Source: Bacteroidia bacterium
GTDB lineage: Bacteria > Bacteroidota > Bacteroidia > M30B66
NCBI GenBank assembly: GCA_965279035.1
Contig: OZ257142.1
Location: 824,682-888,681 of the forward strand
Direction of reading: 5' to 3'
DNA: 64,000 nt
Positions within the stretch are counted from its first letter, which is position 1. Each line of letters begins with the position of its first letter. The position numbers and the translations under genes were made by a program. The notes beneath the pieces were generated by a model, which was not told the DNA's origin, did not search any database, and saw only the letters and a list, made by a program, of their open reading frames with translations. This document shows, one piece after another, positions 3,019 to 39,230 of the stretch.

Positions 3019-3921
3019 TTAAATTTTCTGAAATAATCCTTTAAGAGCGTCGCCTTTTCCAGTGAGTGTAAGGATGCGATTTATTAAGGATTTTGAGAAA
3101 CCTAATAGAAGATTTTTTTCGAATCGATTTCGGAGAACCTCATCCTGTGTATTCGCAGAGACAAACTCGGTTCCTTCTGTAGTACTGGCTTGGGGAGGAG
3201 CGGGATTTTGACTTGTAATAAATCGGGTTATGCTGATGCCTGTTGCTTGGATAAATACTTTGCGCAGGTGATGATCGCGCATAAGTTTATTTAAGGAAGA
3301 AGGAGTGTAATAGGATAGATGCTCAGGCCAAGAAATTACGTTGTAGCTCGACTTCAAATTATATCGAAGTAGTGAGTTGAAATTGGGTGTTGTAATATAG
3401 AGTAGACCGCCTTTTCGGAGGAGTTTGCTAAAATTAGAAATTTCAGTTCTGGGTGTGTTGATGTGTTCGATGACTTCGAACGAAGTGATCACATCGAAAC
3501 TTTCGGGTTCAAATGAGCTTGGATCTAAAACCCCTTTTTTCATTTTAATTCCTTTGGCTTCACAAATTTGAATGGCAGCATCGGTGAATTCGGTGCCATA
3601 AACATCCCAACCGCGCGATTTAGCAACTTCTAAGAAATAGCCAATTCCGCAGCCTACATCGAGGAGTTTGTTTGTTTTACGAGCACCTTCGAATCGATCA
3701 AGAATTTCGTGATAACGCTTGATGGTGATTGGACTCAAATAGTCATTTCTACCGTAGCCTTTGTAATATTCTTCGAGTTGAGTTTGAGAAGGATTATTGG
3801 TTGAAAATACCATTCCGCAGTTTGAACAACGGGCGAGCCATGCTTTCTCATATCCTGCAATTGGCTTTAATTGATCACTATTACATACAATACACGAATG
3901 AATTGTTTGAGTTTGATTCAT
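3019..3921 (-). CDS. Class I SAM-dependent methyltransferase with an N-terminal CxxC...CxxC zinc ribbon
   Basis: It has the 'LDVGCGIGYF' SAM-binding motif I and a Methyltransf_11/23-like core. This is the last gene of the glycan locus. Confidence 0.75.
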   Translation of the reverse strand: MNQTQTIHSCIVCNSDQLKPIAGYEKAWLARCSNCGMVFSTNNPSQTQLEEYYKGYGRNDYLSPITIKRYHEILDRFEGARKTNKLLDVGCGIGYFLEVAKSRGWDVYGTEFTDAAIQICEAKGIKMKKGVLDPSSFEPESFDVITSFEVIEHINTPRTEISNFSKLLRKGGLLYITTPNFNSLLRYNLKSSYNVISWPEHLSYYTPSSLNKLMRDHHLRKVFIQATGISITRFITSQNPAPPQASTTEGTEFVSANTQDEVLRNRFEKNLLLGFSKSLINRILTLTGKGDALKGLFQKI

Positions 3922-4186
3922 GCTTTGTTCAAAGTTGAGAAATGGATCAATTCAATTGGAATTTTGAGAGTTAATCTGAATAAGAATGCTAGTATTTAAG
4001 GAAAAAATGAAATCCAAGTATTCAATTCAAATAGGCAAAAGAAATCTTCCCAAAGCTAAATTTTCCCTTTAGATAATTTGTTAGAATAGCGAGAATGATA
4101 AAAAATAATTGAAAGTTATCTTTCTATTTCCTCTAAAGAAAAGCGAATGAACACTATGCAAAGGGTAATTTAATGAATGTGAATTT

Positions 4187-5464
4187 CTATTCACGATTTA
4201 ATACTTCGTTAAAGAACTGCATATAATTTTCTTTTGCTCGATATTTAGATTTATAGGTTCTATAAGCATTTTGAGCAAATAGATTGTATTCGATTTGTTC
4301 CATTTCGGCCCAACGAATTAAGCAAGAAGAAAGAATGTCTGCATCGGCATTAGCAGGTAACAAACTACCATTGAATTCATCTTCCACAATCTCAGAAACA
4401 CCTCCAACATTAACCGAAATAACTGGCATGCCATGTCCCATCGCCTCCATCATTGAAACTGGAATTCCTTCAGATTCGCTAGTACAAAGTAAAATATCAG
4501 CTTCTCGGTTTTGGAGAAAATTGTAAATAAATTCTTTCGATTTATCTCCTAAAAACTGATAGGAAATATTTGGTTTATTTTGAATGATTTCAGCAGCTAA
4601 ATTTTCGATTGAATTGTCGTTAGATGAAGAGGAGCCAATATGGATCCATTCAATTTCATGATGATTTATTTTTGAGATTGCCTGAACGATTCGATCAATT
4701 CGTTTGACGGGACGGATGAAAGCGATTGATAAAATTCGTAATCGATTCTTTGTTTTTACTCCCATGTTTGGTTCGGAAATTTCATCAATTCCGAGATGGT
4801 AACAGTTGATTTTTTCTGTTGGAATGCCATTGAGTTTCGCTCTCAAATGAATTACTCCAGATTCGGAAATCGGATTTGTACTATCGAGAATAGAAATAGT
4901 CCATGGCCTTAATGGAAGATAGTTTCCAGGGCTTACATAGTAAAAGCAATCCCATCCATGTGCTCTTGTAACGGCTCTTAGATTTGGATATTTATTTCGC
5001 AAGATTGCCATTCCAGAAGCAAAATAACTGAACCAATAACTGTAAAGGACGACCTGTTCTTTGGGATGATTATGAAGTTTGAATAATCGTTCCATTTCAA
5101 TTGCAAATGCACTTGCTTTCGCTTGAAATCCTAAAAGTGTTTTGATATGAAATGCATCATTCTTTTGATTGTAATTGGATTTGATGAAAGCTCTTTCTTG
5201 TCTCCATGCTTTGCTAAACCAGCAAAAGAGGGAAGTTAATTTCTCGAATTTATTTGGACTGCAATTAAGTTCGATTAGTTCGGCATTGTTGGGAACAAAT
5301 GAACGAATTGTCTTTTCGGAACGGGTATTTCTTTCAGGTAATATGAGGTATATTTTTTCGAATTGATTCGCAATAATCTTTAATTCATCTTGTAAAAAAG
5401 GTTCCGCAAACCCATATGGATAGTGCGTTACAATGAGGTAAAGAAAAGGTCGTTTGCTTTTCAT
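4187..5464 (-). CDS. Glycosyltransferase family 4 (GT-B, group 1)
   Basis: The C-terminal motif 'ESEGIPVSMMEAMGHGMPVISVNVGG...E' is the GT4 EX7E region. Confidence 0.75.
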   Translation of the reverse strand: MKSKRPFLYLIVTHYPYGFAEPFLQDELKIIANQFEKIYLILPERNTRSEKTIRSFVPNNAELIELNCSPNKFEKLTSLFCWFSKAWRQERAFIKSNYNQKNDAFHIKTLLGFQAKASAFAIEMERLFKLHNHPKEQVVLYSYWFSYFASGMAILRNKYPNLRAVTRAHGWDCFYYVSPGNYLPLRPWTISILDSTNPISESGVIHLRAKLNGIPTEKINCYHLGIDEISEPNMGVKTKNRLRILSIAFIRPVKRIDRIVQAISKINHHEIEWIHIGSSSSNDNSIENLAAEIIQNKPNISYQFLGDKSKEFIYNFLQNREADILLCTSESEGIPVSMMEAMGHGMPVISVNVGGVSEIVEDEFNGSLLPANADADILSSCLIRWAEMEQIEYNLFAQNAYRTYKSKYRAKENYMQFFNEVLNRE

Positions 5465-5538
5465 TGGCTGCTAAAATAGCGTTTAAAATCAACCCAATAG
5501 GAAAGCGAACGATTGATAATTTAAATCAGAAAAAACAT

Positions 5539-6699
5539 TTAGCGTTTATATATTTCCAATAATCGATCGGTATAATGATCAATATCGTATTGTTTAGAAA
5601 ATTCAAGGGCAAATTTCCCCATTCGTTCGCGTTCTAAAGGATTTTCGATGAAGTAGATAATCTTCTCAGCAAAATCTTCGGCAGATGCATTATTGGGAAG
5701 CATAAATCCATTTTCCCCTTCTTTCATGAGTTCTCTATTTCCAAATCCATCCAATGAAACAACGGGCAAACCCGAAGCCATTGCTTCAAGGATTACAAGT
5801 CCAAAAGGTTCGTATAATGCGGGATGAACATATAAATGAGCATGTTTTAATCGTTCTGGTACATCGCCTACGCTACCTAAAAAACGCAAATGATTTTCAA
5901 GTCCTTTTTCTTTCGTTTCTTTTGTGAGTGAATCCATTAAAACTCCTGCTCCTAAAACATCTATTGTGACAGGATATCCTTTCTTAATTAGAATTTCTAC
6001 TACGGGAATTAAAAAAGCATGATTTTTTTTAGGAACTAAATTCGCGATTGAAACAATATGGAATGGTTCATTCACAGTAGAATACGATCGATCCGTATGA
6101 AATCGGCTAGTATTAATGGCATTGGGGACAAGGTGAATATTCTTTTTGAAATCGGGTAAATTCTCTGTTAAATACTGCTTTACATCTTCAGAAATGGCAA
6201 TAAAATGATTATTACAAATTTGGTATTTCTGCTTTAACCACACCCGTTCCCAATAGTTTGCAAGGATTGATTTGTTGAAGAAGGTTTTAATTGAGCCTTT
6301 TTTTAATTGAGGCATATTATCGTGCCCGTGGGAGAAATACTTAATTCCTTTTATTATTTCTGATCGTGAAAGGATTTCAGAAAGATAAAGATGAGAATGA
6401 ATAATATCAGGTTTAAACTCATTCACATAGGAGATAAAAGCATTATTGTTTATCGTGGGTTTTCGAAGGAATTTAAAATGAACATCACCACCAATAATGC
6501 TCAATGGAACTTCGTTCAAAAGCGATTCTTTATCTGGATAATTTGGCCAAGTAAAATGATGTGGAAATAGACATACTATATGTACTACATGACCTTTTTT
6601 GACGAGGTCTTTAGCGATTGAACCAAGCAGAATTTCGGCACCACCGCATCCCATTGTTGGAATTACATAAAGAATCTTCATACTAAAACCCTTATTCAA
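5539..6699 (-). CDS. Glycosyltransferase family 4
   Basis: Contains 'YEPFGLVILEAMASGLPVV' (GT4 EX7E). The start is more likely M7 ('MKILYVIP', ~6681). Confidence 0.8.
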   Translation of the reverse strand: MNKGFSMKILYVIPTMGCGGAEILLGSIAKDLVKKGHVVHIVCLFPHHFTWPNYPDKESLLNEVPLSIIGGDVHFKFLRKPTINNNAFISYVNEFKPDIIHSHLYLSEILSRSEIIKGIKYFSHGHDNMPQLKKGSIKTFFNKSILANYWERVWLKQKYQICNNHFIAISEDVKQYLTENLPDFKKNIHLVPNAINTSRFHTDRSYSTVNEPFHIVSIANLVPKKNHAFLIPVVEILIKKGYPVTIDVLGAGVLMDSLTKETKEKGLENHLRFLGSVGDVPERLKHAHLYVHPALYEPFGLVILEAMASGLPVVSLDGFGNRELMKEGENGFMLPNNASAEDFAEKIIYFIENPLERERMGKFALEFSKQYDIDHYTDRLLEIYKR

Positions 6700-6833
6700 T
6701 ATATAGGTGAGGCAAAGTTAAATGATACAGAACAAACTTTATTTATCGTATTAGAAAAATTGTTCAATGTAGTATTGTCTCAAAGAATCAAAAAATGATT
6801 TTTGAAATTCAATTGAAACTAATTAATTGAGAT

Positions 6834-7811
6834 TTAAAGAATTGACATGATTTGATTCGCACAAGAATCACAGGTATATACTCCTGATCGATCATGAATT
6901 CTATTATCAGCAACATCTTCGGAAAAATTATAGACTACGGCTGTTTGATAAAGAAAACCTAATTTTTCTGCCGAATCGATGGTTTCTCTGGTATATGATC
7001 CATCTGGATAGCCAATAGAAACAATCTTCTTTTGAATTACATTTTCCAGGTAAATTTTCGAATCAGAGATTTCCTTATATGCTTTGTCTTGAGTTATTGT
7101 TCCCAGATTATTATGTAAAAATCCATGTGATCCAATTTCGAGATACTTGGATTCGCTGCATTTGAGGATTTCTTTATCCGTCATTAATTTCCAATAATCA
7201 TCATAACTAACATCCGTTTTGAAATCATATAATGACTTAAAAGAATCCATCATTTTAAGTTTATAATCGGTATTAGCATTTTCGTCTTTAATAATCGAAT
7301 ATAAATTCTTTCCTGAGTCTAGACTATAGTATTTTCCATTGTTTTGTCTAAAATTTTCCCCGTCAACATTGATGTCTTGACTTGTGAGAGAAGTCGCAAT
7401 ATTTAAAAAATCAGCCCAAAGAATATCAGACTCTCCTTCGTTTAATCCAGTAATGAAAAAGGTCCCATTTACTTGAGCTTCTTCTAATATTGGTTTAGCA
7501 AAAAGAAAATTATTTCTGTACCCATCATCAAATGTGAGCACTATATTGGGTTTGTCTTTTAAAAAACGTTCTTCAAAAAAATCTTCCAAAGAAATAATAT
7601 GACAGTATTTTTTTAAAAACTGAATTTGTCTGTAGAAGTCTTTCTTGGAAGTATGACGCGTATTAAAACGGGTATCACCGACTTGATCAATTCCATGATA
7701 CATTAAAATGGTATTCTGAGTTTTCCGAAGGCTTCTCCGAGCCAATAGGCCTGTATTAAAGGAAATCTCGTTTCCAGTACGTTGCAGCTTTGAAAGAATA
7801 CGATTTATCAT
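6834..7811 (-). CDS. Polysaccharide deacetylase (NodB/CE4 family)
   Basis: Contains the NodB motif 1 'LTFDDGY' plus downstream His motifs. Confidence 0.75.
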   Translation of the reverse strand: MINRILSKLQRTGNEISFNTGLLARRSLRKTQNTILMYHGIDQVGDTRFNTRHTSKKDFYRQIQFLKKYCHIISLEDFFEERFLKDKPNIVLTFDDGYRNNFLFAKPILEEAQVNGTFFITGLNEGESDILWADFLNIATSLTSQDINVDGENFRQNNGKYYSLDSGKNLYSIIKDENANTDYKLKMMDSFKSLYDFKTDVSYDDYWKLMTDKEILKCSESKYLEIGSHGFLHNNLGTITQDKAYKEISDSKIYLENVIQKKIVSIGYPDGSYTRETIDSAEKLGFLYQTAVVYNFSEDVADNRIHDRSGVYTCDSCANQIMSIL

Positions 7812-7830
7812 AATTCCTGTTTAACAGGAA

Positions 7831-8775
7831 TTAGAATACATCTAAGTCCGCCCCTGTGAACTTCAAAGATAGATTTTGTTCGGGATTTAGCAAATTCTTA
7901 AATACAATTGGAACACCCAATACAAACGGATTTTTTGAGCTAAATAATTTATCTATTTCAGATTCATTCGAGGCACTAATAGTTAATTGATCTAAGCCGA
8001 GTAATGAAGTCAACTTTTTAAGCTTAGTAATAATCTCATTGGCTGAATGATTCTTAGAAAGATCAATATCTCCAATAATTAATGAACCATCGATTTTAGC
8101 CCAAATAGATACCCCTTTCCAAGTGAATTGAAACGATGGATTATAGTGTTTGTATTGATAGTAATCAGCGTCTTTCCAAGCACTGTCATCCTTCGAATTC
8201 ATTTGAGAATTAATAAATGAATCATTGGATTTTGTTGAATTTCTCAATACGAATGAAACCCAAATTTTATATAGAAACTGCAATCTTAATTTTCTAAAAA
8301 TCCGATAGATAGGGATGCCACTATTTTTGAATATATACTGATGAAAATTTCCACTATGATGCCAGTTTAAGCTCCGTGTAAAACCTGGAAATGAATTATC
8401 ATTTGGAAATGCATATAGATAATTCACACCTTCAGCTAATGCTAATTTCTCTGTTTCTCTTCCTAATAATCCAAATAATCCTTTCCGTTGATGTTCTTTA
8501 TGTGTAATGATATCAGCCGATTGTCCTGAAAGTTTTTTTAATCCATCTATTTTTAGAAAGCCAGGAAATAGACAGAAAAACGCGGCAGGAGTGCCATCTT
8601 TTGCATAGGCAAAATGGGCTAAATATGTTTTAGAAGTGTAGGCTGTATTGTATTTATTTTGAAGATATTTTTCTGAAATATCAATGCCTCTCGATTCTTT
8701 AAATAATCGAGATAAGTCTTTTATATTTTCATGGTTTGCTCTTACAATTCGATACTCAGAAGAATCATCATTCAT
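7831..8775 (-). CDS. GNAT-type N-acyltransferase with a ~150-aa C-terminal extension of unknown function
   Basis: 'HKEHQRKGLFGLL' fits the GNAT acyl-CoA binding motif (Q/R-x-x-G-x-G/A). The rest of the protein is unassigned. Confidence 0.5.
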   Translation of the reverse strand: MNDDSSEYRIVRANHENIKDLSRLFKESRGIDISEKYLQNKYNTAYTSKTYLAHFAYAKDGTPAAFFCLFPGFLKIDGLKKLSGQSADIITHKEHQRKGLFGLLGRETEKLALAEGVNYLYAFPNDNSFPGFTRSLNWHHSGNFHQYIFKNSGIPIYRIFRKLRLQFLYKIWVSFVLRNSTKSNDSFINSQMNSKDDSAWKDADYYQYKHYNPSFQFTWKGVSIWAKIDGSLIIGDIDLSKNHSANEIITKLKKLTSLLGLDQLTISASNESEIDKLFSSKNPFVLGVPIVFKNLLNPEQNLSLKFTGADLDVF

Positions 8776-9712
8776 TTTTCGAATTCTTAGTAAGGAGTGG
8801 AGCAGTTAAAGGGAAATGGCTAAGAAACAGGTATAAACGTTCTTTATTACGGTAAGTAGTTAAATGCTTAAATGATTGAAATAACATTTTATTCATCATC
8901 GACCAATTTTTCACATACTCATAATGTCGAGCCATATTAAAGCTGCATTCGGCTAATAGATGTTTTTTTATATTCAAAGGAATTTTCTTTGATACATCTA
9001 AATAATCTTTTGCATAGAATAATCGATTTAGTCCTTTATAACGATCGAGGTAGGAATTTCGACTTAAATCGACCGAATTCCCCTCATGAATTCTATAAAT
9101 TAAGGTGTTAGTTATAACTTGAAATACGGGGAATTTCGTTGCAATAGAAACCCATAGAACAAGGTCTTCAACAATGACAATTTGAGGATCAAATTTAAAT
9201 TCATTCAAAATAGTTCGATGAATACAAACCCTCGATGGAGTGATTGGATTTAAAAGCAAATAATTAAATTCATTTCCGATTTGCATCTCAGGAATCATTG
9301 GTGTTTCAATTCCTTTGGCTGTTAGGTAGCTTACATTGGTAAAGAAGAATGCAATCGGCTTTTGCTTTTGAATAATGAATTGGGACAAGAATTCAAGATG
9401 ATTGGGAGCATATTTATCATCACTATCTAAAAATAATAAATAGTTGCCTTTTGTATGAATAGCACCATTGTTTCTGGCGGCACTTCGTTCTGCATTTTTT
9501 TGATAAATATATCGGACTCTTGGATCTGTGGTTGAAATGGATTCAATCAGTGCTTTAGTATTATCCGTTGAGCCATCATCAACCACTATGATTTCCCAGT
9601 CGTTGAAAGACTGAATCTGAACGCTTTCAATAGTTTCAGAAAGAATGAATGCCCTGTTATATGCTGGGATGATGATACTAAAAAAGGGATTTTCCAAGCC
9701 CATCTCAGCCAA
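8768..9712 (-). CDS. Glycosyltransferase family 2
   Basis: Contains 'FSIIIPAYN' ... 'VVDDGSTDNT' ... 'LDSDD' (GT2 DxD). Confidence 0.8.
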   Translation of the reverse strand: MAEMGLENPFFSIIIPAYNRAFILSETIESVQIQSFNDWEIIVVDDGSTDNTKALIESISTTDPRVRYIYQKNAERSAARNNGAIHTKGNYLLFLDSDDKYAPNHLEFLSQFIIQKQKPIAFFFTNVSYLTAKGIETPMIPEMQIGNEFNYLLLNPITPSRVCIHRTILNEFKFDPQIVIVEDLVLWVSIATKFPVFQVITNTLIYRIHEGNSVDLSRNSYLDRYKGLNRLFYAKDYLDVSKKIPLNIKKHLLAECSFNMARHYEYVKNWSMMNKMLFQSFKHLTTYRNKERLYLFLSHFPLTAPLLTKNSKNE

Positions 9713-10715
9713 GTAGTGTTTTAAAGCGGAACTTTAATTTTTCTTTTGAAGTTGGCAGATAAATCTTGCTAAATGCCGATTTATTGAAAATACTCCAACC
9801 TTGCTTCAGTGTTTCTTTATTGTTATAACACAAATGAAAAAAACGGATTGCTAAATAGTTCTGAAACGCTTGTTTAGGAATAAATCCACTTTGATTATTG
9901 GCAAGCAGAATTTTCTCTATCAATACTCTTAATTGCTCCATTTGAGTGGAATCTAAGCTCCAGTCAACATTAGCAAATCTTCCATACAGATTTATTTCAT
10001 CAATGGATAATTCAATGCCCATGGAACGAAACTGCTTTTGTTTCACTTTGGCGCAGGTATCCTGCATTGTTTGGGCATATTTATTCGAAATGTTTTTTGG
10101 ATGATCTCGTTTTAGAACAAGTAATTCTTGAATGTTAGAAAGCTTGCAATAATCGCTCAGCCGTACCCAAAATTCATAATCTTCTCCATGAACAAATTCT
10201 GGATCAAAGAATAAATTGTTTTGACGTAAAACAGAAGTTCTAATAGCCGCAGTTGGATGAGAAATATGAGTTTGATATAAATGCCGAATTCGGATTTCTG
10301 TATCGTCTTGGCTGTATTTTACAACTTTAGATTCGATGTGTTCTCCAAAATCCTCAAACCAAGTCCCAATTAGGCCGTAATCAGGGTTTTTATCTAAGAA
10401 TTCAACTTGTTTCTCAATACGTTGAGGAAGACTAATGTCATCCTGGTCCATGCGGATAATATATTCACCAATGCATTTTTCTAGACCAATATTGAGAGAA
10501 GCAATTAAGCCTTTATTTGAATCATTGTTGATTAGGCGAATTCGATTATCCTGAAAGCTTTGTATTACATCGATGCTTCGATCGGTTGATCCATCATTCA
10601 CAATCACAAATTCAAAATCACGATATGTTTGATCGAGAATACTTTGTATTGCAGCAACAAGGTCATCTCCGGCATTATAAACCGGCATAAATACAGAAAC
10701 GCGTGGATTGGCCAT
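9705..10715 (-). CDS. Glycosyltransferase family 2
   Basis: Contains 'VSVFMPVYNAG', 'VNDGSTDRS' and 'RMDQDD'. The start was moved to M14 (10715) to remove the overlap with the upstream gene. Confidence 0.8.
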   Translation of the reverse strand: MANPRVSVFMPVYNAGDDLVAAIQSILDQTYRDFEFVIVNDGSTDRSIDVIQSFQDNRIRLINNDSNKGLIASLNIGLEKCIGEYIIRMDQDDISLPQRIEKQVEFLDKNPDYGLIGTWFEDFGEHIESKVVKYSQDDTEIRIRHLYQTHISHPTAAIRTSVLRQNNLFFDPEFVHGEDYEFWVRLSDYCKLSNIQELLVLKRDHPKNISNKYAQTMQDTCAKVKQKQFRSMGIELSIDEINLYGRFANVDWSLDSTQMEQLRVLIEKILLANNQSGFIPKQAFQNYLAIRFFHLCYNNKETLKQGWSIFNKSAFSKIYLPTSKEKLKFRFKTLLG

Positions 10716-10717
10716 CT

Positions 10718-11656
10718 TTAAGAACGCGGCAAAGATACAAGCATTTCTCGCCAAAGTTCTTCAATCCCTTTTTCAAGTTCGATTTTGGCTTGCCATCCTG
10801 TAAGTGTATTGATTTTATTGACGTTTAGGATGTTTGTAGGCGTATCTACAGCACGTGATGGGAGATATTTTACGGGAAAGTTTTGTTGAGTTGCTAAACG
10901 TATTTTCTCGAGTACCTCATTCACCGTTGAACCTACTCCTGAACCAATATTTAGAATTTCATTTTGAATTGGATGTTTCAAAATAAATTCAATTCCTCTG
11001 CATAAATCTTGAATGTGAATATAATCTCTTACCACATTTCCATCACCCCAGATTTCAACCGGCTGTTCTTGAATTAACTTTCCTAAAGTAACAGCAATTA
11101 AGCCTTGTTTACCATATAGATTCTGTCCAGATCCATAAGGATTGGAAGGGCGAACAATCACATAATCAAGTCCGAGATTTCTTGATTGGAAACGGATATA
11201 TTCCTCCATAGCCAATTTTGAAAATCCGTAATAATTAATGGGTGCTGTTACTGATGTTTCACTATTTACTTCTTGACCATTATTCCCATAGATAGCGCCA
11301 CCTGTAGAGAAGAACATCAATTTTTTACTTCCATGTTGAAGCATTCCATTTACTAATTCAAATCCAGCAAGTAGATTCAAATCTTGTTCTTTTTGAAAAT
11401 CATTAAATCCGGAGGATGGTATGAGACTACAAGCTAAATGGATAACCCTATCGAATGGACCTTTTTGAAGACATGAATGAAGAAAATGACGATCGGTAAT
11501 GTCTCCAATATATTCGATGTAGGGAAATTCAATTAGCTTATCAGAGGTAAAAGGGAACTTATCGCAAATATGAATTTCATATCCTTCATCGGAAAGATGA
11601 GAAGCGAGATTTCGGCCAATAAAACCGTTACCACCAAGGATGAGAATACGCGACAT
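10718..11656 (-). CDS. NAD-dependent sugar-nucleotide epimerase/dehydratase (extended SDR)
   Basis: Contains the Rossmann motif 'ILILGGNGFIGRNL' and a YxxxK catalytic motif. Confidence 0.8.
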   Translation of the reverse strand: MSRILILGGNGFIGRNLASHLSDEGYEIHICDKFPFTSDKLIEFPYIEYIGDITDRHFLHSCLQKGPFDRVIHLACSLIPSSGFNDFQKEQDLNLLAGFELVNGMLQHGSKKLMFFSTGGAIYGNNGQEVNSETSVTAPINYYGFSKLAMEEYIRFQSRNLGLDYVIVRPSNPYGSGQNLYGKQGLIAVTLGKLIQEQPVEIWGDGNVVRDYIHIQDLCRGIEFILKHPIQNEILNIGSGVGSTVNEVLEKIRLATQQNFPVKYLPSRAVDTPTNILNVNKINTLTGWQAKIELEKGIEELWREMLVSLPRS

Positions 11657-11687
11657 GATCGCGAAGATAATAATTTCGTTGATTAAG

Positions 11688-12578
11688 TTAGATGCGTCTC
11701 CAATTTGAAGGTATCAAATCAGAGGTATTTCGAACATCATCGGCGAACCATTTTACAGGGCAAATTACCTTTTTAGTCCTTGATGGATTTAACCAAGCGC
11801 CCCACCAACTAAAGCTACTATTTGCCGTAATGTGGTGTTTGCACATGCTCATCAGTTGCATATCGATATATGCCAAATCACCTTGATTATTATCGATATA
11901 ATGAACAGGCCAGCTTAATTTTAAATTGATTTTACACCATTCGGGATCATCTGAGAAAATGAAAAAAACAGGATCTATTTCATTTTCTGCGATCAATTTA
12001 GCTGCACTTTCATAATAGTCAATCCCACACGAACCGTGCGTTTTAGCCACATCGGGATTATTTACCATATCGGTTCTTCTTACATGCAGGGAAATAGCAT
12101 TCGACTGTTTAATTAATTGTTCCCAATGCTTATTTTTATCGCTTAATGGATATTTAAATCGAAAATCATTTCGAATTTGATTCTCCTGATTTTTAAAATA
12201 TTTCTCTGATTGCCAGTATCCAATGAGGTAAATATTGCTAGAAGCCTTTGTGAAATTTGCATCATAATGAAAGAACGGTTCTTTATAAACCAATTTCTTA
12301 TGATTGGGTTTCATTGAATCTAATTTGGTTCTTATTTTTCCTGGAATGCTTGTTATATCAGGTTTAAGGAAATAATCAATTTCTTTTCTCGAAGCCAATT
12401 CAGGTTGAAGCATGTATGGATCGAGTCCATAATTCCGTGGAGTTTGTTTTTCAATATCCAGTTCAAACCATGTTTTATCTAATTTCAACGAAGTGTTTTT
12501 CTCCATCGATAAGGCTTTCCCTGCAGCATATTGAAATAGTTGATTACCCAATCCACTAATTAGTTCAATGATTATCAT
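11688..12578 (-). CDS. Alpha-1,2-fucosyltransferase, glycosyltransferase family 11
   Basis: The three GT11 motifs are present: 'GLGNQLFQYA', 'HVRRTDMV' and 'ITANSSFSWWGAWL' (compare FutC 'GGLGNQMFQYA', 'HIRRGDYV', 'IIANSTYSWWAAYL'). Start chosen at M12. Confidence 0.85.
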   Translation of the reverse strand: MIIIELISGLGNQLFQYAAGKALSMEKNTSLKLDKTWFELDIEKQTPRNYGLDPYMLQPELASRKEIDYFLKPDITSIPGKIRTKLDSMKPNHKKLVYKEPFFHYDANFTKASSNIYLIGYWQSEKYFKNQENQIRNDFRFKYPLSDKNKHWEQLIKQSNAISLHVRRTDMVNNPDVAKTHGSCGIDYYESAAKLIAENEIDPVFFIFSDDPEWCKINLKLSWPVHYIDNNQGDLAYIDMQLMSMCKHHITANSSFSWWGAWLNPSRTKKVICPVKWFADDVRNTSDLIPSNWRRI

Positions 12579-13527
12579 GATTTTTTTGTTGAATTTGAAT
12601 CCATTTCCCAAGAAATTTAATTGCTAATTGATTATTTAATTTAGAAATAAAACAATAAAGTGAAATAAACGCAGGAATTGTTCCTCGAAATCCGGCAGTT
12701 CGAATTTCTTGAATAGACCGAATCTTATAGGTTTGCATGAGAAACAATAAACGTTCGTTGAATATTACTTTATCATCAGAATTTAAAATGGATTTTAATT
12801 TATCATAACAATAAAAGAATTCTTTTAACTCCACATTTTTATTGTCGCGTAGAGTATTTGTTAATTGAAGTGGATGTTGATCAGAAGTAATAATTAAAGG
12901 TTCATCAATTGCATAACTTCCATATTTATAGATGAATTGCATATAACTTTCGATGTCAACCAACCAAATTAAGTTGGAGTCAAACGGGATAAATGCTTCG
13001 CGTTTTATAATCGTTGCAGATGGCGCACCAATAATATTCGCGTGAAATAATACAGAAGGTTGCTGATTGATGTTTTTGATTTTAGAATCATTGGTATTAT
13101 AAAGCAATTTTTCTCCAGTCAAGGTGTTGAAAATAAAACTCTTGCAGAACAAAAATACTTGATCGGGATGTTCTTTAATTGCCCAAACAAATCGTTCCAA
13201 GGCAAGTGAATTTTCAAACCAATCGTCATGATGCATTATTTTAATCCATGTTCCTTGTGCATGTGTAACAGAAGAATTCCAATTCTCAGGAGAACCTTTT
13301 GATGGCTGGTTATGAAAATAGTGCAGATCGAAATTCCAAGATTTCTCTTTAGTGACATTCAAAACGGATCCATCTTGACTGTCATCCGAAAGAATCACTT
13401 CAAAATCTCTGAACGTTTGAACTTCAATAGATTCAAGCAATCTTCTTAGATCATCGGGTTGTTTATACGCTGGAATACAAATAGAAATGAATGGCGTCAT
13501 TTTTTCAGCTTGAAAGAGTTTCTCCAT
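12565..13527 (-). CDS. Glycosyltransferase family 2
   Basis: Contains 'ISICIPAYKQ' ... 'ILSDDSQDGS'. Confidence 0.75.
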   Translation of the reverse strand: MEKLFQAEKMTPFISICIPAYKQPDDLRRLLESIEVQTFRDFEVILSDDSQDGSVLNVTKEKSWNFDLHYFHNQPSKGSPENWNSSVTHAQGTWIKIMHHDDWFENSLALERFVWAIKEHPDQVFLFCKSFIFNTLTGEKLLYNTNDSKIKNINQQPSVLFHANIIGAPSATIIKREAFIPFDSNLIWLVDIESYMQFIYKYGSYAIDEPLIITSDQHPLQLTNTLRDNKNVELKEFFYCYDKLKSILNSDDKVIFNERLLFLMQTYKIRSIQEIRTAGFRGTIPAFISLYCFISKLNNQLAIKFLGKWIQIQQKNHDNH

Positions 13528-13644
13528 TTTTATTTACACATATTCAATGAAGCCTTTTCATGATGGTCCAATGATTTTTGAGCAGTATGTTTTTCAAATA
13601 AACAAAAAGAGAACTAGAAATTGGAGTTGATAATTTTAATTCCC

Positions 13645-13675
13645 TGACATACAGCAATATGTCAAAAATATGTCA
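13645..13675. promoter_or_regulatory. Candidate operator: inverted repeat TGACATA-N6-TATGTCA followed by a third direct copy of TATGTCA
   Basis: Read directly from the 180-nt intergenic gap between two GT2 genes, upstream of the gene ending at 13527. Confidence 0.3.
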
Positions 13676-13706
13676 CATCTTAAAAACAAAAAAATGATTG
13701 TGGATG

Positions 13707-14696
13707 TTAGAAGAGTGTAGCGTTAGTTTGATTTAGGTATTGGGGTGGGTCTTCATTGATCTGCCCCAATTTTTTTCTGCTTCTTAGCAAGCTACTAATG
13801 AATAGTTTCTTTGAAATAACCCAGCTAAAGCACAATGAAATCCCTCGTATTCCTGGATGGATTTCACGAAGAATTTTGAACATTAACGGGCTTGGGGCAC
13901 TTTTCAAATTATTCTCCTTGATAATTACAGTTAAGTATCTCAAGTAAACTTGTTGTAAATGAATTCGTCTGTTGATTGCATGTTTTCCCGGTAAGATTAG
14001 AATTGCTTTCAACATGGGAATTACGAGCTTTAATTCTTGCCAAGTTGAAGAACCGGGATGCACTCGATAAAGAATCAAGGCCTCTGAAATACTTAAGAAA
14101 GAACAGCCCTTTTCAAGTAATAGCGTCCAAAGTAGATAATCCTCACAATTTTGGATTTCTAATTCTTCTGGAAACATTCCTTTAGAAAACAAGACCTCCT
14201 TTTTAACCAATACAGAAGACGTTGGGATTTTATTTTGAGCGTGAAATTCTTGAACTGCTTCTTCTCCTTGGTACACTTTATTTTGAACTCCAAAACGATG
14301 TTCTCTTAAATCCATTTGATTGGATAAACAGATAAAGCCATCGGTAAAACTCAAATCATAATTCCCTTTTATGGTTTCCTCCAATTGAAATTTCAACTTC
14401 CCGGGCAACCAAATGTCATCCGAATCTAAAAAGGCTATCCAAACCCCTTTTGCTAGTTTAATTCCTGTATTTCGAGCCTTTCCTTGACGTCCGTTGGCTT
14501 GTTTGATTAAACGAATTCGTGAATCTGAAGCGCTTAGTTTTTCGACTACTTCAAGCGTAATATCTGTAGATCCATCGTCTACAATAATTAGTTCCCAAGA
14601 GGAATAATCTTGAATTTGAATCGACTGAACTGTAGTTTCTAAATAGTCGGCACAATTGTATGCAGGTATGATAATGGAAACGATCGGATTTTCCAT
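13707..14696 (-). CDS. Glycosyltransferase family 2
   Basis: Contains 'VSIIIPAYNCADYL', 'VDDGSTDIT' and 'LDSDD'. Confidence 0.8.
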   Translation of the reverse strand: MENPIVSIIIPAYNCADYLETTVQSIQIQDYSSWELIIVDDGSTDITLEVVEKLSASDSRIRLIKQANGRQGKARNTGIKLAKGVWIAFLDSDDIWLPGKLKFQLEETIKGNYDLSFTDGFICLSNQMDLREHRFGVQNKVYQGEEAVQEFHAQNKIPTSSVLVKKEVLFSKGMFPEELEIQNCEDYLLWTLLLEKGCSFLSISEALILYRVHPGSSTWQELKLVIPMLKAILILPGKHAINRRIHLQQVYLRYLTVIIKENNLKSAPSPLMFKILREIHPGIRGISLCFSWVISKKLFISSLLRSRKKLGQINEDPPQYLNQTNATLF

Positions 14697-14697
14697 A

Positions 14698-16173
14698 TCA
14701 ACTAAAATTCGACATCGATTTCAAAACTCTTTTTTCACGAATGCGAGCTTCAAGTTTTGGTGAAACAGAGATAAATTTTCGAAATAACCTCATAATCAAA
14801 GGAGGTTTGTCGCTTAATACTTCGCCCATAAACATCCCTTTTTCTACATCAATGGATTTGAAATGTTTAAATGGAATTCCAAATGTTTGGATGTAGAATC
14901 CGTATTTCAATGCACCTAATTTGGGCATAGGTTCAATATGATCTTTTATCATCCCACATAATTCTTCATGCGAGTTGGGTTCGTATGTTGAGCCAAGCGA
15001 TTTATAGTAGGAATTAGAAGCTAAAATGGAGGGTTTTCCCCAATATGTTGCTTCAATTCCAGCGGAAGATCCAAATGAAATAGCCTTCTCACTTAAATCC
15101 ATAATCAAATAAGTACTTATTTGAGATTCAGCAGTAATGACTGTTAAATTGGGATAATTGAGCTCGTATAAATCAGTTTTATGATGCGACGTTACCGTTT
15201 TGAAATTGGGATGAATTCTCAAATAAAAATGAAAATTGGAATCATCTTTAAAGCTTTCTACAATCTTTTTTATCCCTGTAATTTGATCAGGATAAATAAT
15301 CTTTTCTTCATCTTGATAAATAGCAGCGAGCTCATCATCCGAAGAATGTAAAATCAGCACATTCCGTTTGTCATTATTCCAATCGGGAGGCAATGTTTTA
15401 ACATGATCTTTCGTAAAAGAGTACCAGTTGGTAATTACTCCGACTCTTCGATTATCGTAGAATTTCTTTCCTTCCTCATTTCGGAATTTCTCATCTGCAT
15501 TTTCCCAAGATTCATTAACTGCACGAAAATTAAAGTCAAGATCAGATATTGCTTCGTTGATTGTGACCGAGTATTTATCTAAAGAACTTCCTCTTTCATG
15601 TAAATAGCAATCAATACCTAATTCTTTACATGCAGTAAAGACAGCCGCTGTATGTGCGAATCGACCACTAAAAGCATATACACGATCGGGTTTTTCCTTC
15701 TTCAATACATTGAGTATAGAATAATAAACACCAGCACTACTAATGATGTAATTCTTGAGTGTTGGCTTAAACTGATCAAGTGATGGACTTGGATCTCGTG
15801 TTATAGCAATGATGGAATTGATAATCCCAAAACCTAAGCGAAAATTCCCAACAGTGAGCTTTCTCAACTCTTCCATTCCACTAATATCTTTAGGAATATT
15901 AGCTATAATGGATTTTTGTTCAGAGTCAAGAGCTGGCAGTGGAATAGAGCGAATTGGTTTTTTTAAGAGTTGCAAACCATGTTGATGTTTTGCTAAACAT
16001 AAATCACATTTCTCCGGAACCATGAATGGATTCAGATCGCAATTTGGAAGTTGAGCATTGCAATAAACTTGAATTATTTCATGTCCTTCATCCGAAAGAT
16101 TCGTGATTAATTCTAGTTCAGTTTCGTAATGCGAAACCCATTGAAGATGTGAATTGAAAAAAAGTATTTTCAT
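14698..16173 (-). CDS. Putative GT-B glycosyltransferase of the KpsS/Capsule_synth-like type (candidate nonulosonic-acid transferase) with an N-terminal Cys cluster
   Basis: 491 aa. Cys pairs lie near the N-terminus ('CNAQLPNC', 'CDLC'). An 'LRIHPNFK' HP-type motif and the overall length resemble the Capsule_synth (KpsS/KpsC/LpsZ) family. The assignment is weak. Confidence 0.35.
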   Translation of the reverse strand: MKILFFNSHLQWVSHYETELELITNLSDEGHEIIQVYCNAQLPNCDLNPFMVPEKCDLCLAKHQHGLQLLKKPIRSIPLPALDSEQKSIIANIPKDISGMEELRKLTVGNFRLGFGIINSIIAITRDPSPSLDQFKPTLKNYIISSAGVYYSILNVLKKEKPDRVYAFSGRFAHTAAVFTACKELGIDCYLHERGSSLDKYSVTINEAISDLDFNFRAVNESWENADEKFRNEEGKKFYDNRRVGVITNWYSFTKDHVKTLPPDWNNDKRNVLILHSSDDELAAIYQDEEKIIYPDQITGIKKIVESFKDDSNFHFYLRIHPNFKTVTSHHKTDLYELNYPNLTVITAESQISTYLIMDLSEKAISFGSSAGIEATYWGKPSILASNSYYKSLGSTYEPNSHEELCGMIKDHIEPMPKLGALKYGFYIQTFGIPFKHFKSIDVEKGMFMGEVLSDKPPLIMRLFRKFISVSPKLEARIREKRVLKSMSNFS

Positions 16174-16877
16174 CTTTCAATGCCTCTAATGAGCATAAAT
16201 GCTTCTGCGAAATTGCTTCCTACATAAACGCCCCAGTTTTTAGCTCTAACTTTTAGTGCTTCAGGTGAACGAGGATGTGGAAAAGCGCGACGTTCAAATT
16301 CATAGCTCTCCATCCCTTTAATTTTAGCATCGATATCTTCTTCTTCTACCACAAAAAAGTAATTCGGGAGAAAAGGATTGGGATAATTAAATGCTTGCCA
16401 TTCAGTTGATGAAGGCGTTTCAAAGCAAAAAAGATACTTTACAGGTTCATGCATCATTGGTCTGATAGCAGTAACCACCGCTTCAAAAGTTCTGCGATGA
16501 TCTATGTTTGTATCACCACCATGATGGGTGAAAATGACTTCTGGATTAAAGTCTTCTTTTTCTTTTTCAATCACCTTGATAATATCCAGTAAATCGACTG
16601 AATCAAAACGATTGTCGGCGAATTCGTATGTTGAAACTGACTCAAATCCGATGGCTTGACGGGCGTTTTCAATATTGGATTTATGAATGGCTAATTCGGC
16701 TTCCCATTTGGCTTGATCGCGTTGATCGGAGCGAGATGTAATGCCTTCTCCAAGAATAATCACTCGAATTTTGCAATTCTTTTGATGAATTAAATGGTGC
16801 ATCGTTCCTCCACATCCTAATAATTCATCATCCGGATGAGCAACAACTAATAGAATTCTTTTTTCTTTTAAGTCCAT
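16170..16877 (-). CDS. PIG-L/LmbE family N-acetyl-sugar deacetylase
   Basis: Contains the zinc-binding signature 'VVAHPDDELLGCGG'. Confidence 0.8.
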   Translation of the reverse strand: MDLKEKRILLVVAHPDDELLGCGGTMHHLIHQKNCKIRVIILGEGITSRSDQRDQAKWEAELAIHKSNIENARQAIGFESVSTYEFADNRFDSVDLLDIIKVIEKEKEDFNPEVIFTHHGGDTNIDHRRTFEAVVTAIRPMMHEPVKYLFCFETPSSTEWQAFNYPNPFLPNYFFVVEEEDIDAKIKGMESYEFERRAFPHPRSPEALKVRAKNWGVYVGSNFAEAFMLIRGIER

Positions 16878-16950
16878 TTGAATTAATTCAAGGAAATTTG
16901 TTCAATTTAAATTTAGGATTTGATTGAAAATCAACGAATAAGAAAGTGGT

Positions 16951-17823
16951 TTAAACTTCATTAATCCAAGATGGTTTGTTCTCCCATAAGTGTGTTAGCA
17001 CTTCGGGAAATGGTTTGAGCCATCTCAATAGTTCCTTACTTGGATGATATACTTGTTCATCTTTTTGTCCATCATCCTCAATTTCAATTTCAAGCTTAGA
17101 TTCGGGAAGATTGGACACTAAGTGTATGAAACCTGCTGTTGAAATTGTATCTCTTCCTGATGCAATAAAAACCCCCGACAACTTATTTTCAGCTACTCGA
17201 ATTAAGCATTCACTTGCTTCTTCAGCGGAAATATAATTCCGATACGATTCGAGACGTTTGGCTTGAAGTACTTGACCTGCATTTCCTTTAGCAGCAGCAA
17301 GTAGCATCCGATTCCAAAAGAGTGTTGGTTTGATTTGCCATCCCCAAATTCCTGCAATACGAAGGATTGCTTGTTTCTCTGGTTCTAAAACTATTTTCCA
17401 AACATTTTCAGCCGCAATTTTTCCTGCTCCATACAAGTTGGATGGCTCTGCCCAAGTCGTATCATCAACCGAAATTAATGATTGTGAATATACATTGACG
17501 CCACTTACCAAAACGGAAAATCCGATTCCTGAATTTCTTGCCCAAGTTGCCAAGTTTATTGCCATTGCAGCATTTTCTAGCAAGCCTTCGGGATCAAACC
17601 ATTTAACCGATGCAGCCGCATGAATGAGTATAGTATTGGCCGGATCGCTCAGTGAAATCTTTTCTGAAAGTTGTTTTGTCGCATCATTACTACATAGATC
17701 AATTCCACCAGCTCTTGGGGAAGAAATGGGGATGATTTCAGCATTGGGAAAAAGCGTTTTTGCTTGATTGATGATCGCCTTTCCAAGAAATCCAGAAGCT
17801 CCTGTAATAATAATCGATTTCAT
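16951..17823 (-). CDS. NAD(P)-binding sugar-nucleotide reductase/epimerase-like protein (RmlD-like)
   Basis: Contains the Rossmann motif 'IIITGASGFLGKAI' and YxxxK 'YGAGK'. Confidence 0.55.
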   Translation of the reverse strand: MKSIIITGASGFLGKAIINQAKTLFPNAEIIPISSPRAGGIDLCSNDATKQLSEKISLSDPANTILIHAAASVKWFDPEGLLENAAMAINLATWARNSGIGFSVLVSGVNVYSQSLISVDDTTWAEPSNLYGAGKIAAENVWKIVLEPEKQAILRIAGIWGWQIKPTLFWNRMLLAAAKGNAGQVLQAKRLESYRNYISAEEASECLIRVAENKLSGVFIASGRDTISTAGFIHLVSNLPESKLEIEIEDDGQKDEQVYHPSKELLRWLKPFPEVLTHLWENKPSWINEV

Positions 17824-17829
17824 TCTTAA

Positions 17830-18750
17830 TCACGAAATATGTGGTCGCACATCAAATTTTGTAGCTAGAATCGCATTTTCAGGAAGCAAGCATGGAATTC
17901 CTCCAACGATAGGATAAGCAAGTAAACCTTCGGGAGAATAATAACAATCGGCTCGTTTCTCCAATTTTGTTTTAGTAATTGGACAGGAAACTGGTGTATC
18001 AATTTTTGACGAATTATTCTCGTTCTCCACCGAAATCAAAATAATTCCTGAAGGATTCAAAGGAGTCATGATGCATTCCATCAATTGATACATTTCAATC
18101 TTCATCCCGAGCTTTTCGGCAGTTGCTTTCAAATTTCTCACATATCCATGATGACGCATGCGCTCTTGTGCCGCTTCGGTTGCGAGCTCATAAATAGGCT
18201 CAAAAAGAACGAGGTATTTTTTGGTCACCCGAAATAATTCTTTCAATATTTCTTCCTCTCTACTACCATTAGGCTCTATTGCATGTGAGGTAAAAACGAC
18301 ATCAACCGATTTATCTGCAAGTGGAATATTAAATAAATCACCCGTAAATAAATTGGCATGTCCAAAACCTTTGTTTTGAAGATACATTTTCGCGAAACTG
18401 ACTCTTGACCAAGAGATGTCAAAACCATAAATATTGGATGGTTTATTATTGAGAAGAGGAAGCATATTTCCCAAGGTTGTAGCTTCTCCAATACCTGCTT
18501 CTAAAATAGAATCGAATGGACCAATTTTATTGAGAATGGATGCGATTTCGCTGCAGTAAACTAAATTCTTATCATGATTTTCGTTGGCGTATTGAATGTA
18601 ATTTCCAGTTTGAAAATCATAACTAATTTGAATTGCTTCGGTTGTATTGTATTGAGTTTTCTCAATATCACGAAGTAAATTGATGATATTCTCTCCCTTA
18701 CTGTAACTCTCTTTTACATGCAAAAGATGTTTGTATAATTTATTATTCAT
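17830..18750 (-). CDS. Class I SAM-dependent methyltransferase fused to a C-terminal Trm112-like zinc-ribbon domain
   Basis: Motif I 'LEAGIGEAT'. The C-terminal 'CPITK..L......YYS..GL.YPI..GIP.LL' resembles DUF343/Trm112. Confidence 0.6.
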   Translation of the reverse strand: MNNKLYKHLLHVKESYSKGENIINLLRDIEKTQYNTTEAIQISYDFQTGNYIQYANENHDKNLVYCSEIASILNKIGPFDSILEAGIGEATTLGNMLPLLNNKPSNIYGFDISWSRVSFAKMYLQNKGFGHANLFTGDLFNIPLADKSVDVVFTSHAIEPNGSREEEILKELFRVTKKYLVLFEPIYELATEAAQERMRHHGYVRNLKATAEKLGMKIEMYQLMECIMTPLNPSGIILISVENENNSSKIDTPVSCPITKTKLEKRADCYYSPEGLLAYPIVGGIPCLLPENAILATKFDVRPHIS

Positions 18751-18816
18751 CAGCGTCTTTTTTTAAATTGAAAACAAAATTCAAAAATGATTTATCAAGC
18801 GAAAGAATTCATATTC

Positions 18817-19545
18817 TCATACTTTGAGTAGTTTATTCATTAATTCTTGTTTTGAAATATTTCCACTCATTAATATTTCATAACTCTTTTCTCCGCAATT
18901 AAACATTAAATCAAATACAGTCATATAGGGCTCAAAAGCACCGTATTTCTGAGGATATACAGGATGATTGTAGCTTTGGAAATCGATTTGAATTCCTTCG
19001 TTGTGAAATGAATCCGCATTCGCATAATTTTTTCCTAATGCACCAAAAAGAAATAACTCAGGCTTTACTTTTTTACACATATCCAACACTAAATCTGATT
19101 TTTTCCCTGTTAAATCTAAATCATGACCGTAAAGAATATCTACATGGATATTTAAATCTTTTAAAATAAACCGTAGAATATAATCATTGAGTTCCGCTAA
19201 ATACTCCCAATCCATGCTATATAATTCACGGAAAAATGAAATGTATTTATCGTAATATAAGGTCTTTGAATAATTGTATTCTATCGACCGTAAATGCTTT
19301 TTTTTCCAATTCCGTTTATTGTCAATTTGTAAATCTTGAAGTTTAATATCAATTTTACCATATGTATAAACAGGAACAGTAAGCCAGAGAGGACCTTTAG
19401 AAGTTTTTATTTTATTTCGACTGTTCCAATCTTCTTTCAAATATTGAACAGTATCAAAAACTACATAGGCATCTGAAACGGCAATTTTATGAATCAATCC
19501 ACACCAAGGCAAATAAACTGGTTGATGGGAAGTGAGGATTTTCAT
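18817..19545 (-). CDS. WbqC-family protein (function unknown; recurrent in O-antigen loci)
   Basis: The N-terminus 'ILTSHQPVYLPWCGLIHKI...DAYVVFDTVQY' matches the WbqC-like family signature. Confidence 0.7.
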   Translation of the reverse strand: MKILTSHQPVYLPWCGLIHKIAVSDAYVVFDTVQYLKEDWNSRNKIKTSKGPLWLTVPVYTYGKIDIKLQDLQIDNKRNWKKKHLRSIEYNYSKTLYYDKYISFFRELYSMDWEYLAELNDYILRFILKDLNIHVDILYGHDLDLTGKKSDLVLDMCKKVKPELFLFGALGKNYANADSFHNEGIQIDFQSYNHPVYPQKYGAFEPYMTVFDLMFNCGEKSYEILMSGNISKQELMNKLLKV

Positions 19546-19578
19546 TGGATTGATTCTTCAAAAATGGATGATCGTGTA

Positions 19579-30234: not shown

Positions 30235-30254
30235 AATTCAGAAAGACTTAGAAA

Positions 30255-39221: not shown

Positions 39222-39230
39222 TTTTTAAAT

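Follow-up and report, generated by a model that had tools for sequence, protein, structure and literature searches.

A divergent KpsC-like GT-B protein in a Bacteroidia glycan locus is a candidate transferase of a pseudaminic acid-type nonulosonate

We analyzed a 64,000-nt stretch of contig OZ257142.1 from a Bacteroidia bacterium (assembly GCA_965279035.1, positions 824,682 to 888,681; hereafter the window) with a focus on a 491-amino-acid (aa) protein encoded at 14698..16173 of its minus strand. The computed fold, motifs, conservation and gene context point, with a probability of roughly 0.68, to a cytoplasmic and peripherally membrane-associated glycosyltransferase (GT) of the GT-B type, which would belong to an unnamed and deeply divergent lineage within the 'HP-motif' (KpsC/KpsS/WbbB) superfamily of CMP-ulosonic acid transferases and would move a nonulosonate of the pseudaminic acid (Pse) type from its cytidine monophosphate (CMP)-activated form onto a lipid-linked glycan prior to export by Wzm/Wzt. 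A preliminary description of the window had put the protein forward as a candidate pseudaminyl (nonulosonate) transferase, a proposal that is supported here by remote homology to KpsC/KpsS, invariant motifs and a nonulosonate gene context.

Results

The open reading frame (ORF) at 14698..16173, which begins with ATG, was found to be genuine as originally described. A chance ORF is excluded by 332 homologues detected at E ≤ 1e-3 in a word-indexed search, nearly all of them labelled 'hypothetical', and by an exhaustive profile search that recovered 7,926 cluster representatives (50% identity) at E ≤ 1e-3, including 1,856 at E ≤ 1e-30. These family members were distributed among Bacteroidota, Planctomycetota, Cyanobacteria, Verrucomicrobiota and other taxa. 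The closest recorded relative, at 92% identity, is encoded on a Logan contig of 10.9 kb where the genes stand in the same order, and the exact protein sequence of the target was absent from the gene-position index. When a profile of 65 family sequences was searched against the PDB, matches were obtained to KpsC (6mgb, E 0.0025), with an alignment passing through the HP motif and the SxxGxE loop, and to the N-terminal module of WbbB (E 0.008), with an alignment over the SxxGxE loop region of the C-terminal domain; the latter module is the chain-terminating β-Kdo (3-deoxy-D-manno-octulosonate) transferase of Klebsiella O12/Raoultella terrigena and belongs to GT99. Comparison of profiles by hhalign gave probabilities of 85.6% for Escherichia coli KpsS (about 17% identity) and 81% for KpsC-N. 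A search for homologues of E. coli KpsS returned only close relatives (64 to 99% identity), so the profile gained little depth and the hhalign probability stayed at 85.6%. The Pfam family PF05159 (Capsule_synth) was matched by 57 of the 65 relatives at E ≤ 1, several of which scored 25 to 38 bits against a gathering cut-off of 20 bits, while the target itself gave no match even at E ≤ 10. Thus, the target is regarded as a remote homologue of the PF05159 C-terminal domain but a non-member by the curated threshold, since it has no match of its own and its relatives pass over the C-terminal half only.

The AlphaFold model of the target (predicted local distance difference test 93, predicted template modeling score 0.90) is predicted to be a canonical KpsC-like GT-B, with the two alpha/beta domains and helical subdomain that characterize GT107 and with KpsC structures as its closest neighbors. 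By Foldseek, UDP-GlcNAc 2-epimerases and NeuC ranked first by E-value but had TM scores of only 0.2 to 0.3, and the highest TM score was that of KpsC. The earlier assignment to the KpsS/KpsC fold was therefore borne out by both hhalign and Foldseek; a non-GT fold or a confident match to an unrelated profile would have spoken against it, and neither emerged from the model or from the Pfam and NCBIfam searches of the target. The epimerase matches bear on another explanation, that the protein has a GT-B fold but makes or edits the nonulosonate, either in the manner of PseG, NeuC or LegG, as a nucleotide-sugar hydrolase or hydrolysing 2-epimerase, or together with the adjacent PIG-L de-N-acetylase on the CMP-sugar. 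Consistent with such a role are the Foldseek ranking, the translational coupling of the target to PIG-L (see below) and weak Epimerase_2 matches in 39 of 65 relatives (best 8e-6). However, all of these matches are confined to a single domain and fall under the cut-off, the target reaches neither the 30.6 bits of PF02350 nor a whole-protein structural match to UDP-GlcNAc 2-epimerase/NeuC, and the biosynthetic pathway is complete without the family protein. On these grounds a NeuC/PseG-like hydrolase was rejected, and the biosynthetic explanation as a whole is considered improbable.

Other GT-B enzymes were compared in the same manner. A TagB/TagF-like phosphotransferase, or another GT-B enzyme with a CDP- or NDP-linked donor unrelated to nonulosonate, is very improbable: the TagF structural matches had clearly lower Z scores than KpsC, none of the 65 scanned relatives matched the Glyphos_transf Pfam family, and the association with nonulosonate genes would be left unexplained. 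The TagF-like phosphotransferase was rejected on the lower Z score and the lack of Pfam signal. Sialyltransferases of bacteria that carry HP and D/E-D/E-G motifs (e.g., the GT38 polysialyltransferase, 5wc6) were structurally far weaker matches than KpsC, and no Pfam sialyltransferase family was matched by the target or its 65 relatives. GT137 was also rejected, as its fold is methyltransferase-like (PMC11231755) compared with the canonical KpsC-like GT-B model of the target.

Conservation was next to be considered across 264 aligned family sequences, with residues numbered by the target and all motifs encoded on the minus strand. The sequence LRIHPNFK, singled out in the preliminary description, was located at residues 318-325 (nt 15199-15222). 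Within it is the HP motif R319-I-H321-P322 (15208..15219), in which the presumed CMP-phosphate/leaving-group histidine and the proline are invariant (264/264 each) and the arginine is present in 263 of 264 sequences. This motif lines up with VKVHP of KpsC by both HMMER and hhalign, in agreement with the HP feature of GT107 and GT99, and as a sequence correspondence its equivalence to the KpsC motif is secure. A second conserved element, S369-S-A-G372-I-E374 (15052..15069; S in 262, G in 263 and E in 264 of 264), was aligned to SSQMGFE of KpsC, SSVGLE of WbbB and STAGIS of KpsS and is the predicted nucleotide-binding loop/helix of the C-terminal Rossmann domain. Three residues are needed for catalysis by KpsC: Glu66 of LEDGF as the base, the Asp D160 of QXXXD as the nucleophile and the histidine of the HP motif (PMC10148158). 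In the target, H192-E193-R194-G195 ('HERG'; 15589..15600), with an acidic residue at 193 in 263 of 264 sequences, is the probable equivalent of E-D-G, the KpsC motif that holds the general base Glu66, and of D/E-D/E-G in sialyltransferases. HERG was aligned by hhalign to FEEGY of KpsS and LEDGF of KpsC-N, although weakly (P = 0.0086 for the N-terminal domain alone). An acidic loop, S277-S278-D279-D280-E281 (15331..15345), follows the first strand of the C-terminal domain (residues 270-275 in the AlphaFold model) and would correspond in topology to QXXXD, the nucleophile motif of KpsC and WbbB; here S277 is Ser or Thr in 261, S278 is conserved in 256, D280 in 242 and E281 in 263 of 264 sequences. 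At the first beta-alpha loop of the N-terminal domain, H15-Y16-E17-T18 (16120..16131; H 226, Y/F 205, E 208 and T 221 of 264) may serve as an acceptor-side or alternative general-base ('YE') motif; a YE-motif base has been proposed for KpsS1 and KrkA (PMC12887879).

Two further elements set the family apart or tie it to the membrane. The first is a Cys4 cluster, C38-x6-C45-x10-C56-x2-C59 (15997..16062), inserted after beta-2 of the N-terminal domain. Each Cys is present in 260 to 262 of 264 sequences, with gaps or one substitution in the remainder, and the 6/10/2 spacing is conserved in 251 of 259. The cluster is probably a structural Zn site, as judged from residue conservation. The preliminary description had recorded it as 'CxxC...CxxC'; the cluster itself is real, while only the second pair (C56/C59) is a CxxC. 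The cluster is absent from E. coli KpsC and KpsS, in keeping with the earlier remark that such an N terminus is atypical of the KpsS/KpsC family. The second is a basic amphipathic C-terminal tail (residues 457-491; 14701..14805), modelled as helices 459-469 and 472-490. The final 40 residues have a net charge of +7 and a hydrophobic moment of about 0.6, and no transmembrane segment was detected in the target (maximum KD19 1.45). This tail resembles the membrane-anchoring tail of KpsC and is a putative peripheral membrane anchor.

The gene context was surveyed for ORFs of at least 120 aa from 1 to 40 kb of the window by Pfam and NCBIfam. All such ORFs from about 3 to 32 kb were on the minus strand. 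The target was found to lie inside a tightly packed operon, as its start codon shares bases with the TGA of the PIG-L family de-N-acetylase gene upstream (ATGA; 16170..16877, minus strand, PF02585, 9e-23), indicative of translational coupling, and a single nt lies between its stop codon and the ATG of the GT2 gene downstream. On the low-coordinate side is a glycan assembly block (3019..14696, minus strand) that encodes, in order of rising coordinate, a methyltransferase, two GT4 enzymes, a polysaccharide deacetylase, a 314-aa ORF, two GT2 enzymes, an epimerase, a GT11 enzyme and two further GT2 enzymes. On the high-coordinate side is a nonulosonate biosynthesis and decoration block (16951..28934, minus strand) encoding a short-chain dehydrogenase/reductase (SDR), a methyltransferase, WbqC, a second methyltransferase, NeuB/PseI-like and PseG-like proteins, an ATP-grasp protein, a metallophosphatase, a cytidylyltransferase (CTP_transf_3), another SDR, an aldo-keto reductase, PseC and PseB. 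This block is followed by Wzt, an ATP-binding cassette (ABC) ATPase (ABC_tran) with a C-terminal Wzt_C carbohydrate-binding module (CBM), and Wzm, an ABC-2 permease (ABC2_membrane; together 28954..31112, minus strand), with an epimerase gene beyond them at the high-coordinate end of the locus. PseB and PseC scored above their NCBIfam equivalog cut-offs (510 versus 408 bits and 453 versus 423 bits, respectively), while PseG, PseI/NeuB and the cytidylyltransferase were recognizable yet below theirs. Based on the set of PseB, PseC, PseG-like, NeuB, cytidylyltransferase and Wzm/Wzt genes, we therefore interpret the region, at the level of predicted gene function, as an ABC-transporter-dependent glycan locus making a decorated, Pse-type CMP-nonulosonate. 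Tailoring genes beyond the canonical Pse set were identified at 16170-26767 (minus strand), including the PIG-L de-N-acetylase, two SDRs, two methyltransferases, WbqC, an ATP-grasp ligase, a metallophosphatase and an aldo-keto reductase; a PseH-type GNAT was not found in the nonulosonate block of the window. The locus probably yields a Pse derivative that is non-standard and heavily modified.

Among all ORFs surveyed, no GT29, GT38, GT42, GT52, GT80, Maf or TagB-like gene was detected, which agrees with the earlier statement that the locus has neither a sialyltransferase nor Maf. The accompanying statement that the target is the only unassigned GT-sized protein was nearly right: the target is without a family, and a second such ORF is present at 7831-8775 (minus strand, 314 aa) within the GT block. 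This second ORF has no Pfam or NCBIfam family and showed only sub-threshold GNAT hints (E 0.005 to 0.009).

To place the window among related genomes, 80 related loci from species-representative genomes were compared, of which 43 had full 10-kb flanks. These loci came from Bacteroidota, Planctomycetota, the cyanobacterium Zarconia, Verrucomicrobiota, Desulfomonile, Babeliales and others. In the fully flanked set, NeuB was present in 31 of 43 loci, any nonulosonate marker in 36, a strong PseB orthologue in 20 and Wzt (within 10 kb) in 18. NeuB shared its strand with the family gene in 40 of 44 cases and adjoined it in 8; PseB was also often adjacent, a PIG-L homologue adjoined the family gene in 10 of the 80 loci, and Wzt did so in 5. 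The clearest arrangement was an operon of a Pirellulaceae genome (L046), in which the family gene is followed by PseB, PseC, PseF, a PseG/PseH fusion and PseI, all between unrelated genes of the opposite strand, such that the family gene is the sole non-biosynthetic member. The fusion at 14511-16133 of this locus joins PseG (GT28_C) and PseH (GNAT) in 540 aa. Since L046 encodes the complete canonical CMP-Pse pathway together with the family protein, a part in biosynthesis is unlikely for the latter, which would be expected to act as a transferase. Loci of Mariniblastus, Opitutales and Draconibacterium show similar arrangements.

The gene context was also weighed against an explanation in which the protein is a β-Kdo (or other octulosonate) transferase like KpsC, KpsS and WbbB, drawing on the housekeeping supply of CMP-Kdo to make a linker, a primer or a terminal Kdo cap for the ABC-exported glycan, with the nonulosonate added by another enzyme. 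Kdo transferases account for all of the nearest structures and profiles, CMP-Kdo is always on hand, and KpsC and KpsS are established neighbors of neu genes in polysialic acid loci. In addition, WbbB-type Kdo caps accompany CBM-bearing Wzt transporters (PMC11231755), and the Wzt of the window has such a module. Counter to this explanation, L046 and the similar Planctomycetota/Opitutales operons are self-contained Pse operons without a transporter or other GT; furthermore, the ORFs surveyed in the window include no second candidate for nonulosonate transfer, KpsE/KpsD/KpsF/KpsU-type genes are not in the locus, and the Q of the QXXXD motif is not maintained in the family. Overall, a Kdo transferase is considered unlikely, and a Pse-type nonulosonate donor rather than Kdo is favored by gene context.

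Several relatives were found to be multi-module proteins in which the family domain is N-terminal and is followed by GT2, GT4, GT13-like or TPR-methyltransferase modules, as in P0253 (1607 aa), P0241 (975 aa), P0299 (776 aa), P0245 (868 aa) and P0269 (905 aa). The architectures included the family domain with (i) GT2, methyltransferase and GT4 modules; (ii) TPR and two methyltransferase modules; and (iii) a GT13-like (POMGNT1-like) module. When P0299 was searched alone against the PDB, KpsC was not reached and the GT13-like (POMGNT1) fusion partner was found instead. These architectures are those of multi-module glycan assembly and termination enzymes, and by analogy the giant relatives may be single-polypeptide polymerase/terminators similar to WbbB.

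Additional features were observed at the margins of the locus. Just beyond it is a 649-aa ORF (35228-37177, minus strand) with no Pfam match, and farther along is a small sugar-modification cluster on the plus strand (37504-40172) encoding a DegT-type aminotransferase, a PglD-like hexapeptide acetyltransferase and a GT2 enzyme, which resembles a priming module of the bacillosamine-like or diamino-sugar kind. At the opposite end, the plus strand (27-1025) encodes a PKD/CHU_C protein that carries a type IX secretion signal, in keeping with a Bacteroidota origin, and the minus strand (1081-2775) encodes a formiminotransferase-cyclodeaminase of full length (FTCD_N, FTCD and FTCD_C).

Discussion

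Here we propose that the 491-aa protein of the window transfers a Pse-type nonulosonate during the assembly of an ABC-exported glycan; the donor, acceptor, stereochemistry, metal and membrane association in this proposal are what we infer from the computed data. The donor would be the CMP-activated Pse-type nonulosonate generated by the adjacent PseB, PseC, PseG-like, NeuB and cytidylyltransferase genes, and the acceptor would be a lipid-linked glycan assembled by the neighboring GT2, GT4 and GT11 enzymes, with export by Wzm/Wzt to follow nonulosonate transfer. H321, together with R319 and the S369..G372.E374 loop, may hold CMP and help its phosphate leave, while the acceptor hydroxyl could be activated by E193 (HERG) or E17 (HYET). 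E281 (with D280) may act as the nucleophile in a retaining double displacement that proceeds through a covalent enzyme-sugar adduct, a mechanism that is plausible because this invariant residue would occupy the QXXXD position of KpsC and WbbB.

Several observations weigh against this proposal. The target alone has no significant match in Pfam, NCBIfam or PDB sequences, the Capsule_synth homology is confined to the C-terminal domain (profile positions about 154-310), and an N-terminal domain sub-profile (residues 155-300, HMMER) aimed at the HERG and QXXXD correspondences retrieved chance matches only and no KpsC from the PDB. In addition, the Q of QXXXD is replaced by N, T, L, V, S or H in the family, and the register of the acidic loop relative to QXXXD is ambiguous, with hhalign differing between templates. 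The exact nonulosonate is uncertain because the downstream Pse enzymes of the window (PseG and PseI) are sub-threshold. Regarding gene context, the association counts are raw values, and in 7 of the 43 loci with full flanks the surrounding 10 kb are devoid of nonulosonate genes. Moreover, KpsC and KpsS also lie near neu genes in polysialic acid capsule loci without transferring sialic acid; thus, proximity to NeuB alone is no proof of nonulosonate transfer.

Comparison with known enzymes suggests that the target is distantly homologous to the KpsC/KpsS/WbbB superfamily and likely represents a new CAZy family. KpsC (GT107; PDB 6mgb, 6mgd, 6mgc and 8fux), whose retaining β-Kdo modules build the group 2 capsule linker, is 12 to 15% identical to the target and has two modules, whereas the target has one. 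The target further differs from KpsC in its invariant acid Glu281, its unconserved Q of QXXXD and its added, invariant Cys4 insertion, and its family resides in Wzm/Wzt loci of Bacteroidota and Planctomycetota with a Pse-type context, rather than in kps loci with a Kdo context. The similarity to WbbB extends to the N-terminal placement of both GT99 and target-family domains in multi-module GT fusions and to the association of both with CBM-bearing Wzt transporters (PMC11231755). KpsS1 of Acinetobacter baumannii is a KpsS-like, proven retaining Pse5Ac7Ac transferase that founded GT118 (PMC12887879), consistent with the preliminary description, which had cited this enzyme as a family member that transfers Pse. 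KpsS1 resembles the target in the transfer of Pse from CMP-Pse (proposed for the target), in a gene location beside Pse biosynthesis genes and in belonging to the KpsS/KpsC-related superfamily. KpsS1 is reported to be about 30% identical to E. coli KpsS, whereas the target family is similar to E. coli KpsS at the profile level only, a comparison made through E. coli KpsS; judged by that alignment (85.6% probability, 17% identity), the target falls outside GT118-level relatedness. Tanf_01245 and TFUB4_00887 of Tannerella forsythia, which transfer Pse and legionaminic acid derivatives, are, like the target, Bacteroidota GT-B proteins with an HP motif encoded beside CMP-nonulosonate genes (PMC5420450). 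However, by their description they are TagB-like proteins of 442 to 445 aa that act in protein O-glycosylation, and the target family is without TagB/Glyphos_transf signal.

A bolder extension of the proposal is that the family founds a new CAZy-level group of Cys4 (Zn) KpsC-like nonulosonate transferases that act in ABC loci as chain terminators, with one terminal Pse-type residue read by the Wzt module as an export signal. In studied systems, a CBM on Wzt predicts an exported glycan with a specific non-reducing-end cap, and the recognition of a terminal cap by this module is an established paradigm (PMC11231755). The Wzt_C module of the window (Wzt at 28954-30234, minus strand) scored 33.7 bits against a cut-off of 30.4. 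In favor of a terminator, the family domain takes the N-terminal place in GT2/GT4/methyltransferase-TPR fusions, a layout that mirrors WbbB and WbdD, and the family gene is frequently associated with Wzt. A description of a nonulosonate cap in CBM-Wzt systems was not found in the literature searched, and we consider this extension possible but doubtful. The lone methyltransferase gene at 3019-3921 encodes an alternative candidate terminator. If the extension is true, it would provide the first nonulosonate-based terminator, beside the methyl, phosphomethyl and Kdo caps.

Few transferases are available for bacterial nonulosonic acids (pseudaminic acid, legionaminic acid and relatives), knowledge of them is scarce (PMC5420450), and the recently characterized KpsS1 (GT118) is so far the sole KpsS-like example. 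The family described here is a large, unnamed sister group (the 1,856 clusters at 50% identity and E ≤ 1e-30), mostly annotated as 'hypothetical', and offers the best candidate for the transferase missing from many environmental nonulosonate loci. Should the proposed function be true, many glycan loci could be annotated, and the enzymes would become available for chemo-enzymatic pseudaminylation. The family would also allow the covalent double displacement of KpsC and WbbB to be tested on nine-carbon sugars with a Glu nucleophile, and it would represent a metal-binding elaboration of the GT-B fold.
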